Notes under the pieces: generated by a model
Databases searched by the model: none
The model's input: only the letters and a program-made list of their open reading frames with translations
What the model was told of the DNA's origin: nothing
Shown here: piece after piece, positions 4,729 to 32,133 of the stretch
How positions within the stretch are numbered: position 1 is the first letter of the stretch
Layout of the letters: every line of letters starts with the position of its first letter
Program-made: the position numbers and the translations under genes
Assembly (NCBI RefSeq): GCF_011045215.1
Contig: NZ_CP049201.1
Origin: Escherichia coli
GTDB taxonomy: Bacteria > Pseudomonadota > Gammaproteobacteria > Enterobacterales > Enterobacteriaceae
DNA length: 64,000 nucleotides
Direction: 5' to 3' (one strand)

Positions 4729-5309
4729 TGGCATTCAGAATGAGTGAACAACCACGGACCATAAAAATTTATAATCTGCTGGCCGGAACTAATGAATTTA
4801 TTGGTGAAGGTGACGCATATATTCCACCTCATACAGGTCTGCCAGCAAACAGTACCGATATTGCACCGCCAGATATTCCGGCAGGCTTCGTGGCTGTTTT
4901 CAACAGTGATGAGGCATCGTGGCATCTTGTTGAAGACCATCGGGGTAAAACGGTTTATGACGTGGCTTCCGGCGACGCGTTATTTATTTCTGAACTCGGC
5001 TTATTACCGGAAAATGTCACCTGGTTATCCCCGGAAGGGGAGTTTCAGAAGTGGAACGGCACAGCCTGGGTGAAAGATGCAGAAGCAGAAAAACTGTTCC
5101 GGATCCGGGAGGCGGAAGAAACAAAAAACAACCTGATGCAGGTAGCCAGTGAGCATATTGCGCCACTTCAGGATGCTGTAGATCTGGAAATCGCAACGGA
5201 GGAAGAAAACTCGTTGCTGGAAGCCTGGAAGAAGTATCGGGTGTTGCTGAACCGTGTTGATACATCAACTGCACCTGATATTGAGTGGCCTGTAATACCA
5301 GAAGTTTAA
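4728..5309 (+). CDS. tfa: Tail fiber assembly protein (Tfa)
   Basis: 193 aa; its start overlaps the stf stop (TAATG). Sequence and position are typical of lambdoid Tfa chaperones. Confidence 0.8.
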
Positions 5310-5314
5310 AATAA

Positions 5315-5340
5315 AAGCCCGCTTAAAATATCGCGGGCTT
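5315..5340. terminator. Bidirectional terminator hairpin between tfa (+) and the catalase gene (-)
   Basis: Stem AAGCCCGC/GCGGGCTT. On the minus strand it is followed by a T-rich tract (complement of TTTAAAATAAAA). Confidence 0.45.
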
Positions 5341-5428
5341 CGAAATATAAATGTATTTTCAGAGGCTAGAGCTTAGGATATCTCAGCGGCAATTAACTTA
5401 TGAGGGATAGCTAAATACCAGAAGATAA

Positions 5429-6319
5429 TTAGTTTTTACTATTTATCTTTGTTTGTGGTTCTCCTTCAGCAAGCTCAGCGCCAGTGACAGGATTGATGTC
5501 TTCATGGGATTTCAACCTTGTTGCCATAGCTTTTATCATAGCTTCTTGCTTGGTCGAAAGATTTATCGAGGCCTTCCCATCCCCACCGTCAACCGCTGGA
5601 ACTGGATCGGAAATATAGTCAAAGTTTTCATCACTGTTCCAACTACCTCTGACGTCTTCACCTTCTGACATGTTGTAATATACGTTTTTGTATTTCTCAA
5701 TTGGTGGTAATTTTCCTGGTGGAAAGGTGTTGCGAATTGAATGTAATGCTTTTTCAAATGAAAGCATGTGTGCTGCTTCCCTGGTCATTAAAAATGCCAG
5801 AGTGTCTTTTACTCCAGGATCATCAGTAACATTAATGAGACGTTCGTAAATGATCTTTGCCCGAGCTTCAGCTGCAATATTTGAACGAAGATCGGCCGTG
5901 ACTTCGCCAATAGTATCAACATAAGCTGCAGTCCAGGGTACTCCAGCTGAATTAGTTAATGCTGGGCCTCCTCCGTAGAGGAGAGAAGTTATATGGCTGT
6001 CATTGCCATTTTGAGTTAAGGAACGGTAAAGCTCAGCTTCATTCTCAGTTCCTTCAGCAAGTGCTCCTTTTGCACCTTTGTTGAGCATACCAACAAGAGA
6101 ACCAATAATTTCGAGATGACTTAGTTCTTCTGTTGCTATGTCCATCAGCATATCCCTTCGGCCTGCATCTTCATCACTTAAGCCTTGAGTGAAGTATCGG
6201 CATGCTGCTGCAAGCTCACCCTGTGGCCCGCCGAATTGTTCTAAAAGTAGATTAGCCAAGCCTGGGTTTGGCTCACTTACACGTACTGTATATTGAAGTT
6301 TTTTCACGTGTCTAAACAT
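5429..6319 (-). CDS. katN: Manganese (non-haem) catalase, KatN-like
   Basis: 296-aa protein with ferritin-like di-metal catalase features, resembling Salmonella KatN. A GAGGAGG ribosome-binding site lies 6-12 nt upstream. It is the last gene of a co-directional four-gene cluster. Confidence 0.8.
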   Translation of the reverse strand: MFRHVKKLQYTVRVSEPNPGLANLLLEQFGGPQGELAAACRYFTQGLSDEDAGRRDMLMDIATEELSHLEIIGSLVGMLNKGAKGALAEGTENEAELYRSLTQNGNDSHITSLLYGGGPALTNSAGVPWTAAYVDTIGEVTADLRSNIAAEARAKIIYERLINVTDDPGVKDTLAFLMTREAAHMLSFEKALHSIRNTFPPGKLPPIEKYKNVYYNMSEGEDVRGSWNSDENFDYISDPVPAVDGGDGKASINLSTKQEAMIKAMATRLKSHEDINPVTGAELAEGEPQTKINSKN

Positions 6320-6337
6320 AATGCCTCCTCAAAAGAA

Positions 6338-6844
6338 TTATTTTTTGGCTTCAACTCCATCAATTTCAGATCTGACCATGAATTGCTCAGTGGTGTCAGG
6401 AATATGGTTAAGAAGCCATTCAGCCATTTGTTTTTCTTCATTAAGAATTGCTTCAATAATGGGTACTGAAGCTGTATCACCCGCATTTTTGGCTGCTGCG
6501 AGAAGAGATGTGTAGCACGCAATTTCAAATTGTTCGAAAACATAGCCACTGATCGAACCTTTGACAATTTCATCAGATGGAAAAATTCCACCAATGGATT
6601 GCCCAAACGCGGCCATTTTACTCATAGAGTCTTTAATGACAGAGCGCGAAATATTATTACGATCAAGTATGCTTTCAAGCTGTGAAAGCTGGTTCTTTGT
6701 TTCGCTAATGTGCTGCTCAATTCTGGAACGTAACTCTGGATAGTTTTCTATCCGGCTGGCCATAGACTCAAGCATTTTTTCAGCTTGTTTCTCCATCGCA
6801 TGTGCATCACGAAGCCAGTCATGGTAATGTTCAATTCTATTCAT
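6338..6844 (-). CDS. yciE: YciE-like ferritin-like (DUF892) stress protein
   Basis: 168 aa; resembles YciE; tightly linked upstream of the catalase gene. Confidence 0.75.
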   Translation of the reverse strand: MNRIEHYHDWLRDAHAMEKQAEKMLESMASRIENYPELRSRIEQHISETKNQLSQLESILDRNNISRSVIKDSMSKMAAFGQSIGGIFPSDEIVKGSISGYVFEQFEIACYTSLLAAAKNAGDTASVPIIEAILNEEKQMAEWLLNHIPDTTEQFMVRSEIDGVEAKK

Positions 6845-6880
6845 AATCTGTTTATCCTAAAAGAAATTGAAGTCTATAGT

Positions 6881-7387
6881 TCAGGAGTTATCCTGAGCTT
6901 TTTTATTAACGTTATTAAATGCCAGGTCTGTTAATTTGACATCAGTAGCTTTTTCCTCTTCCAGTGTTTCTTTCAGGAGTTTAGCCGCTTTTTTATATCC
7001 TAATTGCTCAGCGAGTGTTACCAAAGTGCCATAACTGGCAATTTCATAGTGCTCTACTTTTTGTGCTGCAGCAATCAATGCAGCATCACGTACTTCATTT
7101 TTATCAGTGCTTTCAATTACCTCATTCGCCTCTTCGATAAGTCCTTCCATTGCGGCACACTTAATTCTTTTCAATTTAAGACCATCTTCAGAATCAACAA
7201 TCTGATCGATGCGTTCAATTTGACCATGTGTCTCATCAAGATGTGACTGAAAAGCAGCGGTTAATTTATCACTATATGCAGAGCGACTAAGTTTAGACAG
7301 TGCCTTTGTTAGTTGTTTCTCAGCGCTGTATGTATCCGATAATAAGTGGATGAAGATATCTTCAACAGATTTAATTTGCATAATCAC
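6881..7387 (-). CDS. yciF: YciF-like ferritin-like (DUF892) stress protein
   Basis: 168 aa; YciF-like sequence; same orientation and operon context. Confidence 0.75.
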   Translation of the reverse strand: MIMQIKSVEDIFIHLLSDTYSAEKQLTKALSKLSRSAYSDKLTAAFQSHLDETHGQIERIDQIVDSEDGLKLKRIKCAAMEGLIEEANEVIESTDKNEVRDAALIAAAQKVEHYEIASYGTLVTLAEQLGYKKAAKLLKETLEEEKATDVKLTDLAFNNVNKKAQDNS

Positions 7388-7400
7388 TCCAGAGTTTTCA

Positions 7401-7422
7401 CTGCGAGCCCGTAGGCTCGCAG
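7401..7422 (-). other. Perfect 9-bp stem hairpin between the yciG-like and yciF-like genes
   Basis: CTGCGAGCC-CGTA-GGCTCGCAG. No clear U-tract follows, so it is more likely an RNA stabiliser or partial attenuator than a full terminator. Confidence 0.3.
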
Positions 7423-7459
7423 TTAGCTTCAGTTATTCACGAATGTAGGGGATGATAAA

Positions 7460-7642
7460 TTAAGAGTCAGATTTACGGCCGCCACCATGGCTATTCTGAC
7501 CACCTTTTTTCCCTGCTTCTGATGCTCTTTGTGGATCGTTTTTAAAATTACCGCCACTATGTTGGCCGCCTTTACGACCAGCGTCAGAAGCTTTTTGTCG
7601 ATCTTCAGCGAAATTACCTGCACCGCCACGATGTTCGGTCAT
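7460..7642 (-). CDS. yciG: YciG-like KGG-repeat general stress protein
   Basis: 60 aa with repeated KGG and GGNF motifs (MTEHRGGAGNFAEDRQKASDAGRKGGQHSGGNFKNDPQRASEAGKKGG...); first gene of the cluster. Confidence 0.7.
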   Translation of the reverse strand: MTEHRGGAGNFAEDRQKASDAGRKGGQHSGGNFKNDPQRASEAGKKGGQNSHGGGRKSDS

Positions 7643-7707
7643 ATCATTTCTCCTCTGATTTTCAAATTGTAAATAACATGTGCCTTGTCAGCACCCAATT
7701 AACTTTA

Positions 7708-7770
7708 GTAACAAATAAGAAAGTGTCAAATAACAGATTGGTATGCGCATTTTGATGTGACAAATAACAG
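7708..7770. promoter_or_regulatory. Putative promoter/operator region of the yciG-like operon with direct repeats
   Basis: Two near-identical 14-mers, GTGTCAAATAACAG (7723-7736) and GTGACAAATAACAG (7757-7770), plus a partial third copy ACAAATAA (7711-7718), in AT-rich DNA just upstream of the yciG-like start. Confidence 0.3.
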
Positions 7771-7872
7771 TTGTAAAAAATATGTGCTCAGTGAGTATAA
7801 TTTATTGATATCTTAGTGATTAATGGGAAGTTTAGGTTGTAACTCAAAAGATTAATATACCCAAATTTACAT

Positions 7873-8211
7873 TTATATATTATTTGATGCTCCTGGTGTT
7901 GTTTTTCTCAATAAGAATACTCTGTAAAATAATTCAATCGTAAGATGGTGGTTATTCATATTTTTGAGATACTTCCTAATAGAGTCCATCCCTTGAATAA
8001 ATAATTGTTTTAAAATTTCGTCTAACAAACTAATTACAAAAACTTTTATATAACCCAAAGAATCATGATTATTCTTAATCGTCAAGATTTGACCGTAAAA
8101 ATTTAAGCACAGAAAATTGTGTGCAAGGATGTGTTGTTCAGTCTGTCGAACTTTCGATAGTTTGAGTATTAAATGATTTCCAGCCGTTATTGATTTTACG
8201 CGTAATTCCAT
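7873..8211 (-). CDS. Hypothetical protein (AT-rich orphan ORF, may be spurious)
   Basis: 112-aa ORF in a strongly AT-rich stretch between the stress operon and ydfJ. No recognisable motif and no obvious ribosome-binding site. Confidence 0.2.
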   Translation of the reverse strand: MELRVKSITAGNHLILKLSKVRQTEQHILAHNFLCLNFYGQILTIKNNHDSLGYIKVFVISLLDEILKQLFIQGMDSIRKYLKNMNNHHLTIELFYRVFLLRKTTPGASNNI

Positions 8212-8377
8212 AAAAAACTTATCTGTTGGAGAGTTATTTGGGGCATATATGGGACAGAAATCGGCCCCAGATAGACAGTGAGATCGATCTCAGGACGCTT
8301 TTGAAAAAATGCAACTATCTGAAAAAACGTAGAAAACGCCAAGGAACCCACAGGATGTGAAAAAACACCTGTGAATT

Positions 8378-9661
8378 ATGGATTTCCAGTTATATTCGCT
8401 CGGCGCAGCGTTGGTGTTTCATGAAATATTTTTTCCTGAATCATCAACGGCAATGGCGTTAATTCTGGCAATGGGAACCTACGGTGCAGGTTATGTCGCG
8501 CGTATTGTCGGAGCATTTATTTTCGGCAAAATGGGCGACAGAATAGGGCGTAAAAAAGTGCTCTTTATTACCATCACCATGATGGGGATCTGTACCACCT
8601 TAATTGGTGTGTTACCGACCTATGCACAGATTGGTGTTTTTGCACCCATCTTGCTGGTGACGCTGCGTATTATTCAGGGATTGGGTGCAGGTGCGGAAAT
8701 TTCCGGTGCCGGTACGATGCTGGCGGAATATGCGCCAAAAGGTAAGCGCGGAATTATCTCCTCATTTGTGGCTATGGGAACTAACTGCGGAACCTTAAGC
8801 GCAACGGCAATCTGGGCCTTTATGTTCTTCATTCTCAGTAAAGAGGAACTGCTGGCGTGGGGATGGCGTATACCGTTCCTGGCGAGCGTTGTCGTGATGG
8901 TCTTTGCTATCTGGTTGCGTATGAATCTGAAAGAAAGCCCGGTCTTTGAGAAGGTTAACGACAGCAACCAACCAACAGCAAAACCTGCACCTGCTGGTAG
9001 CATGTTCCAGAGCAAATCCTTCTGGCTGGCAACAGGGCTGCGTTTTGGTCAGGCAGGTAACTCCGGATTAATTCAGACTTTCCTTGCAGGCTATTTAGTG
9101 CAGACGTTATTGTTTAACAAAGCAATTCCAACAGATGCATTGATGATCAGTTCGATTCTCGGCTTTATGACCATTCCGTTCCTTGGTTGGTTATCCGATA
9201 AAATTGGTCGCCGGATCCCGTATATTATTATGAATACCTCCGCGATTGTGCTGGCATGGCCAATGCTTTCTATCATCGTAGATAAAAGCTATGCCCCGAG
9301 CACCATTATGGTTGCACTGATTGTGATTCATAACAGTGCGGTGCTGGGATTATTTGCTCTGGAAAATATTACCATGGCAGAAATGTTTGGTTGTAAAAAC
9401 CGCTTTACCCGGATGGCTATTTCAAAAGAAATTGGTGGTCTTATCGCTTCCGGTTTTGGTCCTATCCTGGCAGGTATTTTCTGCACCATGACGGAATCCT
9501 GGTATCCGATCGCCATTATGATCATGGCATATTCAGTGATTGGTTTAATCTCTGCGCTGAAAATGCCAGAAGTGAAAGACCGTGATTTAAGTGCGCTGGA
9601 AGACGCTGCGGAAGATCAACCGCGTGTTGTAAGAGCTGCGCAACCTTCCAGAAGTCTGTAA
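8378..9661 (+). CDS. ydfJ: MFS transporter YdfJ (apparently N-terminally truncated)
   Basis: 427 aa with an MFS signature (GKMGDRIGRKK loop). The first transmembrane region expected in this family appears to be missing, consistent with a gene interrupted at a prophage junction. Confidence 0.85.
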   Translation: MDFQLYSLGAALVFHEIFFPESSTAMALILAMGTYGAGYVARIVGAFIFGKMGDRIGRKKVLFITITMMGICTTLIGVLPTYAQIGVFAPILLVTLRIIQGLGAGAEISGAGTMLAEYAPKGKRGIISSFVAMGTNCGTLSATAIWAFMFFILSKEELLAWGWRIPFLASVVVMVFAIWLRMNLKESPVFEKVNDSNQPTAKPAPAGSMFQSKSFWLATGLRFGQAGNSGLIQTFLAGYLVQTLLFNKAIPTDALMISSILGFMTIPFLGWLSDKIGRRIPYIIMNTSAIVLAWPMLSIIVDKSYAPSTIMVALIVIHNSAVLGLFALENITMAEMFGCKNRFTRMAISKEIGGLIASGFGPILAGIFCTMTESWYPIAIMIMAYSVIGLISALKMPEVKDRDLSALEDAAEDQPRVVRAAQPSRSL

Positions 9662-11449: not shown

Positions 11450-11625
11450 AGGTGTTTTCTCCTTTCTGATTTACAGTCGAAGCCCACGTAACGGGCGCAA
11501 TATAAATACTCCTGTCGAGTGAAATATTTTTTGTTTTTGATCAAGCTCACATCTTTTTTGATGCATGCATGAGCCATAAGGCGGGGGTAAAGACTCTCAT
11601 CCCGGATGGGATGAGAGGAAATGAA

Positions 11626-31968: not shown

Positions 31969-32133
31969 ATTTCACTATATTAGTTACAACATCCTATATG
32001 CCTTTATCATTAACAGGTGCCACATGCAGCACCTGTTAATGTTGTAAGCTTGCAGGTAATTTGTAAATCGTGTCTTGAGAATGTGATCGTAATCACGTTT
32101 AATAGGGCAACTTTTCCACGCCTGAAGATAACC

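Follow-up and report, generated by a model that had tools for sequence, protein, structure and literature searches.

An intercistronic mRNA hairpin between yciG and yciF in the yciGFE-katN operon of Escherichia coli

The spacer between the first two genes of a yciGFE-katN-like operon of Escherichia coli carries a perfect hairpin which, as comparison of homologous sequences indicates, is a selected structure of the operon mRNA and neither a REP-like repeat, a DNA operator nor a chance palindrome, because its stem covaries, its G.U pairs occur on the sense strand only and it is present in single copy. We consider it fairly probable that the hairpin sets the level of the yciG message apart from the levels of yciF, yciE and katN: it would define and shield the 3' end of a yciG mRNA that is short and abundant, leaving the downstream genes to be expressed by read-through. 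The operon was analysed within a stretch of 64,000 nucleotides (hereafter the window), to which all positions refer.

The operon and the hairpin in its first spacer

The region from 5300 to 7900 of the window is matched at 95-99% or better in 381 of 5,426 complete E. coli genomes, always on the chromosome. The matching genomes include 55989 and O157:H7, and the window represents an E. coli chromosome of the O157/55989 type at a prophage border. Four genes in the order yciG-yciF-yciE-katN, all on the minus strand (Table 1), make up the operon known in EHEC as Z1921-Z1924, or the yciGFE-katN-like operon (PMC5363993). In the annotation of 55989, prophage tail-fibre genes (tfaQ) are followed, on the opposite strand, by a Mn catalase, two ferritin-like (YciE/YciF) proteins and a general stress protein, and then by a 5'-truncated ydfJ; in the window, ydfJ occupies 8378-9661 (+), the gene being annotated without its N-terminus in 55989, and some 730 nt of AT-rich DNA devoid of annotated genes (7643-8377) separate it from yciG. 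Since the operon, together with this AT-rich stretch, is flanked by the truncated ydfJ and the tail-fibre genes, it is located at a prophage/chromosome junction; the prophage concerned is CP-933X in EDL933, and KatN has been reported as a T6SS-secreted catalase in EHEC (PMC5363993). The yciGFE(katN) genes form a strongly sigma-S-dependent stress locus. At 5071-5269 (+), in the interval that separates the prophage tail-fibre assembly gene from the end of the katN operon, Rfam gives a full-length match to IS009 (RF02111), scoring 227.6 bits with a gathering score of 117.

Table 1. Coordinates of the operon and its elements in the window
Feature	Position	Strand	Remarks
yciG-like gene	7460..7642	-	60 aa, KGG-repeat general stress protein; Z1924 in EDL933
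yciF-like gene	6881..7381	-	166 aa, DUF892/ferritin-like
yciE-like gene	6338..6844	-	168 aa
katN	5429..6319	-	Mn catalase, 296 aa; Z1921
Intercistronic mRNA hairpin	7400..7423	-	5' arm 7423-7414 (ACUGCGAGCC), loop 7413-7410 (UACG), 3' arm 7409-7400 (GGCUCGCAGU)
yciG-yciF spacer	7382..7459	-	78 nt
Shine-Dalgarno GGAG of yciF-like gene	7387..7390	-	5 nt upstream of the ATG at 7381; from sequence
Promoter-like site upstream of yciG, TTGACA-16-TAAAGT	7702..7729	-	consensus match only
Canonical intrinsic terminator, operon end	5307..5340	-	AAGCCCGC...GCGGGCUU then UUAUUUUA; -16 kcal/mol, z = -3.6

The preliminary description had set the hairpin within a range of 7388-7459, which is the whole spacer if yciF begins at an upstream GTG; with the ATG at 7381, the start given by RefSeq, most database copies and the 55989 annotation, the range has to be extended to 7382. 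A consensus scan of the minus strand returned no promoter-like site within this spacer, and folding of the yciF-yciE and yciE-katN spacers revealed no significant structure in either. An imperfect inverted repeat across the yciF stop codon (6878-6899) is terminator-like on the plus (antisense) strand, where it is followed by TTTTTATT; on the mRNA strand its fold is weak and not significant (z = -0.75).

On the plus strand the palindrome reads CTGCGAGCC-CGTA-GGCTCGCAG at 7401-7422, and addition of the flanking A/T pair makes the stem a perfect 10 bp; the perfect hairpin that had been described is therefore present, with a stem of 10 bp instead of the 9 bp first counted. Because the genes lie on the minus strand, the relevant RNA is the reverse complement, ACUGCGAGCC-UACG-GGCUCGCAGU, in which the 4-nt loop forms a c(UACG)g tetraloop of the UNCG class and seven of the ten pairs are G-C. 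The sense 24-mer folds at -20.1 kcal/mol (z = -6.7), compared with -18.3 kcal/mol for the other strand, and the 106-nt context around the hairpin retains a z score of -3.5. The hairpin begins 36 nt past the yciG stop codon, so that a terminating ribosome would not melt it; the region on its 5' side is AU-rich, and on its 3' side 9 nt (GAAAACUCU), containing no U-tract, separate it from the yciF Shine-Dalgarno sequence.

Under a first-order Markov model of the window, counting perfect stems of at least 10 bp with loops of 3-8 nt, 0.35 such hairpins are expected by chance per 64 kb, or about 4e-4 per 78-nt spacer. Further long perfect hairpins in the window are found at 32008-32041 (13-bp stem, 8-nt loop), at 59524-59554 (12-bp stem, 7-nt loop) and at 11594-11617 (10-bp stem, 4-nt loop, no T-run). 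A scan of 5000-9000 against Rfam 15, with E values up to 10, gave no match covering 7400-7423, the nearest being a spurious snoR113 match at 7447-7515 (20 bits, with a gathering score of 47), and a consensus terminator scan made no call at 7400-7423.

Conservation, covariation and strand specificity

Comparison with the chromosomal yciGF spacer, as proposed in the preliminary description, shows that the hairpin is kept: the K-12 spacer, obtained through a 72%-identical DNA match, contains CUGCGGGCC-GUAU-GGCUCGCAG at the equivalent place, with a different loop, one A-U pair exchanged for G.U and an upstream flank that does not align, and compensatory changes are seen across genera. Homologous spacers were collected blind to the hairpin in three ways: by scanning one genome per species with a YciF peptide; by tblastn searches with YciF of plasmid records, some of them apparently chromosomal fragments; and by searching metagenome contigs for a DNA pattern in the yciG coding region. 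A homologue search with the YciF protein yielded nothing beyond near-identical E. coli proteins and did not widen the sample. Enterobacteriaceae were the only group in which yciG was found immediately 5' of yciF, apart from Pantoea and Mixta, where the gap is much longer; all spacers with a gap below 200 nt fold into one dominant hairpin each. Most of them belong to a single sequence class, CUGCGRG...CUCGCAG, which occurs in E. coli (both paralogues), Lelliottia, Enterobacter, Leclercia, Citrobacter, Pseudocitrobacter, Salmonella and Klebsiella. In four lineages (Enterobacter sp. R1, Phytobacter, Superficieibacter and Pseudescherichia) the spacer instead holds a strong hairpin unrelated in sequence, which suggests that the element has been replaced rather than lost and points to selection for a hairpin as such. 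These unrelated hairpins (loci L010, L011, L023 and L044) have stems of up to 18 bp and folding energies down to -25 kcal/mol.

Within E. coli, 374 of the 381 genomes with the katN locus are identical over 36 nt, and the divergent strain wlxctx60, with about six substitutions in the flanks of the spacer, has an unaltered 24-nt hairpin. Among homologues, between 17 and 30 nt separate the hairpin from the start codon.

An alignment of 22 distinct sense-strand variants was examined for covariation. Across the 10-pair helix 95.5% of cells pair (197 of 198 in the 9-bp core), and five stem pairs are changed on both sides; when one partner is slid by one to three columns, pairing falls to only 27-38% of cells. 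RNAalifold independently predicted the identical helix, with nine pairs. None of 500 shuffles attained any of the observed covariation measures, a result to be read as counts and not as probabilities, since the sequences are related and shuffles overstate their independence. The informative pairs are columns 16/27 (C-G in 10 variants, U-A in 6, U.G in 5), 14/29 (G.U in 14, A-U in 8), 17/26 and 10/33. The motif used for harvesting the variants prescribes most of the outer stem, and part of the constancy seen there is built in by this choice; the covarying inner pairs lie outside this constraint, and the motif was present in all 19 distinct metagenome spacers that had been found blind to the hairpin.

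Every wobble pair is a G.U when the stem is read as mRNA; read from the opposite strand, or as a symmetric site in DNA, it would become an A.C mismatch. In 19 of the 22 variants the sense strand folds more stably than the antisense strand (mean -17.2 kcal/mol, against -13.0 kcal/mol antisense), and eight of the sense loops, compared with a single antisense loop, are UNCG or GNRA tetraloops. A DNA operator or an antisense RNA was rejected on account of this strand asymmetry of the G.U pairs. A dispersed repeat of the REP/BIME kind was likewise rejected, the window containing one match at up to three mismatches; the hairpin occurs at one place per genome and is confined to the 381 E. coli genomes with the katN locus. 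The reading of the palindrome as a DNA-level element (a protein operator or a REP/BIME-like repeat) or as a functionless chance palindrome draws on the perfect DNA symmetry of the window copy and on the strong conservation of the stem sequence; against the one-sided G.U pairs, the single copy in the window and in E. coli genomes, the lack of a match to any Rfam family, the low chance expectation for the spacer and the unrelated hairpins in the same spacer of other genera, we regard it as very improbable.

Since the outer stem (CUGCGRG/CUCGCAG) is nearly invariant across genera, sequence-specific recognition is possible. Under stress, an RNA-binding protein or an RNase might then act at the hairpin and tune the ratio of YciG to YciFE-KatN; or else the hairpin might be a U-tract-less terminator in E. 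coli. To this pair of options we attach only a small probability.

Expression across the hairpin and the sequence 3' of the stem

A step-down in transcript abundance after yciG, which the preliminary description had put forward as the observation to look for, is present in three published data sets. In stationary-phase RNA-seq of Salmonella 14028, reads per kb amount to 41,351 for yciG, 4,372 for yciF, 3,307 for yciE and 2,078 for katN, with wild-type counts of 7,567, 2,204, 1,677 and 1,826, respectively, and all four genes are down by log2 7.5-10 in the rpoS mutant, i.e. sigma-S dependent (PMC5437024). These reads-per-kb values correspond to a 9.5-fold drop exactly across the homologous hairpin, followed by drops of only 1.3- and 1.6-fold at the next two junctions. 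In nitrogen-starved K-12, the DESeq2 baseMean is 100 for yciG (180 nt), 23.2 for yciF (501 nt) and 32.9 for yciE (507 nt) (PMC10954441), or about 12-fold more yciG than yciF per nucleotide, at low counts. Expression of the exact copy is represented by a microarray of EDL933 only, in which log2 signals at the same locus are 11.1 for Z1924 (yciG-like), 8.9 for Z1923 and 9.9 for Z1922, all RpoS-dependent (PMC2907692), intensities between probes not being comparable. The hairpin is most likely the cause of the yciG-to-yciF step-down, on evidence that is correlative and comes mostly from homologous operons; a yciF segment that decays faster or, in K-12, transcription reading through from trpA could also produce it. 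The three Term-seq or 3'-end data sets searched, and that of an EHEC ProQ study, contained no yciG entry, and the literature searched yielded neither mapped 3' ends nor Northern blots or half-lives for yciG.

For efficient intrinsic termination, E. coli RNA polymerase requires a U-rich tract next to the stem, and UNCG and GNRA loops are typical of terminator hairpins. The window copy possesses the GC-rich hairpin of a canonical intrinsic terminator and lacks the U-rich tract of about 7-9 nt: its tail, UGAAAACU, includes a run of four A and only two U in 8 nt, the fewest among the 22 variants, and its stem is the most stable of them. After the core stem the variants have from two to seven U in 8 nt (counted, as in the ymdF comparison below, after trimmed stems); the homologues from Salmonella, Klebsiella, Leclercia and Citrobacter have five to seven, the tails being UAUUUUGC in Salmonella, UUAUUUUC in Klebsiella, UUAUUUUU in Citrobacter werkmanii and UGAUUUCA in K-12.

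Judged by such tails, orthologue hairpins with a moderate U-tract probably act as leaky intrinsic terminators. The possibility that the window copy, too, is a leaky Rho-independent terminator, which alone sets the yciG:yciF ratio despite its poor tail, gains from the high stability and GC content of its hairpin, from the U-rich tails of the orthologues, from the size of the Salmonella step-down and from the UNCG/GNRA loops among the variants. We nevertheless judge it unlikely: the U-tract is absent, so the window tail should be unable to support efficient intrinsic termination, its d'Aubenton-type score is negative, and the terminator scan made no call. Moreover, termination need not cause the step-down, because K-12, with only UGAUUU after the stem, still shows a large one.

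Stand-alone paralogues of yciG (ymdF type, MANHRGGSGNF...) at metagenome loci L090-L207 (e.g. L096, L097 and L125) are followed in many contigs by a uniform terminator, CCGCCGG-loop-CCGGCGG with U7-8, the sequence of which is unrelated to that of the yciG-yciF hairpin. The median number of U in 8 nt is seven for these stand-alone hairpins and four for the yciG-yciF hairpins (Mann-Whitney p = 4e-4, for sequences that are phylogenetically non-independent). The tails thus compared, together with that of the operon-end terminator, indicate a full U-tract where transcription would have to stop, and a hairpin with a weak or missing U-tract where partial continuation would be needed.

Proposed role and relation to known systems

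According to the mechanism that we favour, transcription would start from one sigma-S-dependent promoter upstream of yciG, and some transcripts would end at the 3' side of the stem-loop or be trimmed to it; the stem-loop would block 3'-to-5' exonucleases, allowing a short, stable yciG mRNA to accumulate, and read-through transcripts would supply yciF, yciE and katN at lower levels. The route by which the 3' ends are made we infer to differ among copies: where orthologues have a U-rich tail, leaky intrinsic termination probably accounts for some or most of the effect, and in the window copy the ends more likely come from endonucleolytic cleavage or from decay of the downstream part, with the hairpin serving as a decay barrier. 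As the tail UGAAAACU provides no U-tract, protection of the 3' end appears more likely than attenuation in the window copy, which has the stable, structurally conserved stem-loop in an operon transcript that is expected of a stabiliser or decay barrier. The suggestion that the element is a partial attenuator or a processing/stability element is supported by the step-down and by conservation; of its two forms, the second fits this copy better.

The hairpin might instead protect the 5' end of a yciFE-katN mRNA from RNase E after cleavage upstream, or organise the ribosome-binding site of yciF. Its position just before the yciF Shine-Dalgarno sequence, the AU-rich flank upstream and the minimum-free-energy fold of the window, which pairs the region after the yciG stop with the Shine-Dalgarno sequence around the hairpin, are compatible with such a role; however, the distance to the start codon is variable among homologues, neither K-12 nor Salmonella keeps the long-range pairing, and the downstream genes are less abundant, the reverse of the effect that a stabiliser dedicated to them would have on its own; we hold this role to be improbable. 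The pairing in question joins AUCAUCC, just past the yciG stop, to the yciF ribosome binding site (GGAGUGAU) in a helix that encloses the hairpin (7424-7459 with 7379-7391, minus strand), and is strengthened by AUCAC in a metagenome variant. Translational coupling through this pairing was rejected, as it is absent from the K-12 and Salmonella folds and the spacing is variable.

The decay-barrier role proposed for the window copy has parallels in the intercistronic stabiliser hairpins of other operons: the puf stem-loop of Rhodobacter capsulatus, the REP stabiliser of malE-malF and the differential stability of papB-papA. As in these systems, a stable stem-loop lies between cistrons of one operon, the upstream segment is much more abundant and a strong U-tract is unnecessary. 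Unlike the malE-malF REP, the yciG-yciF hairpin is single-copy and has a different consensus; and unlike in all three, the protected gene would be a 60-codon first cistron, blockage of exonucleases and processing being predictions for yciG. Intra-operon leaky terminators or attenuators, such as those of rplL-rpoB and T1 of rpsU-dnaG-rpoD, resemble the yciG-yciF element in being GC-rich hairpins within an operon with lower expression of the distal genes, and share a U-rich tail with its orthologues in Salmonella, Klebsiella and Citrobacter, whereas the window copy has no U-tract and is not recognised as a terminator by simple scans or scores. The ymdF-type and operon-end terminators are similar to it in stability (-15 to -20 kcal/mol), and the ymdF-type ones also in following a homologous small gene; they differ from it in what follows the stem, U7-8 and UUAUUUUA, respectively, and the ymdF type also in the sequence of the stem.

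The literature searched, which did not extend to the primary operon papers (Robbe-Saule 2001; Beraud 2010), contained no description linking yciG with a terminator or stem-loop. The yciG-yciF hairpin is an ordinary kind of regulatory element that has apparently not been pointed out for this operon before, and a prior mention is possible. The hairpin would account for a message for the small hydrophilin-like YciG that is about tenfold above those of the co-transcribed ferritin-like and catalase genes. It should be borne in mind when operon fusions, deletions and RNA-seq of the yciGFE-katN locus are interpreted. Homologues of the operon offer a natural allelic series in which the same stem is followed by tails ranging from U-rich (Klebsiella, Citrobacter) to U-less (the window copy), and which could separate termination from 3'-end protection.
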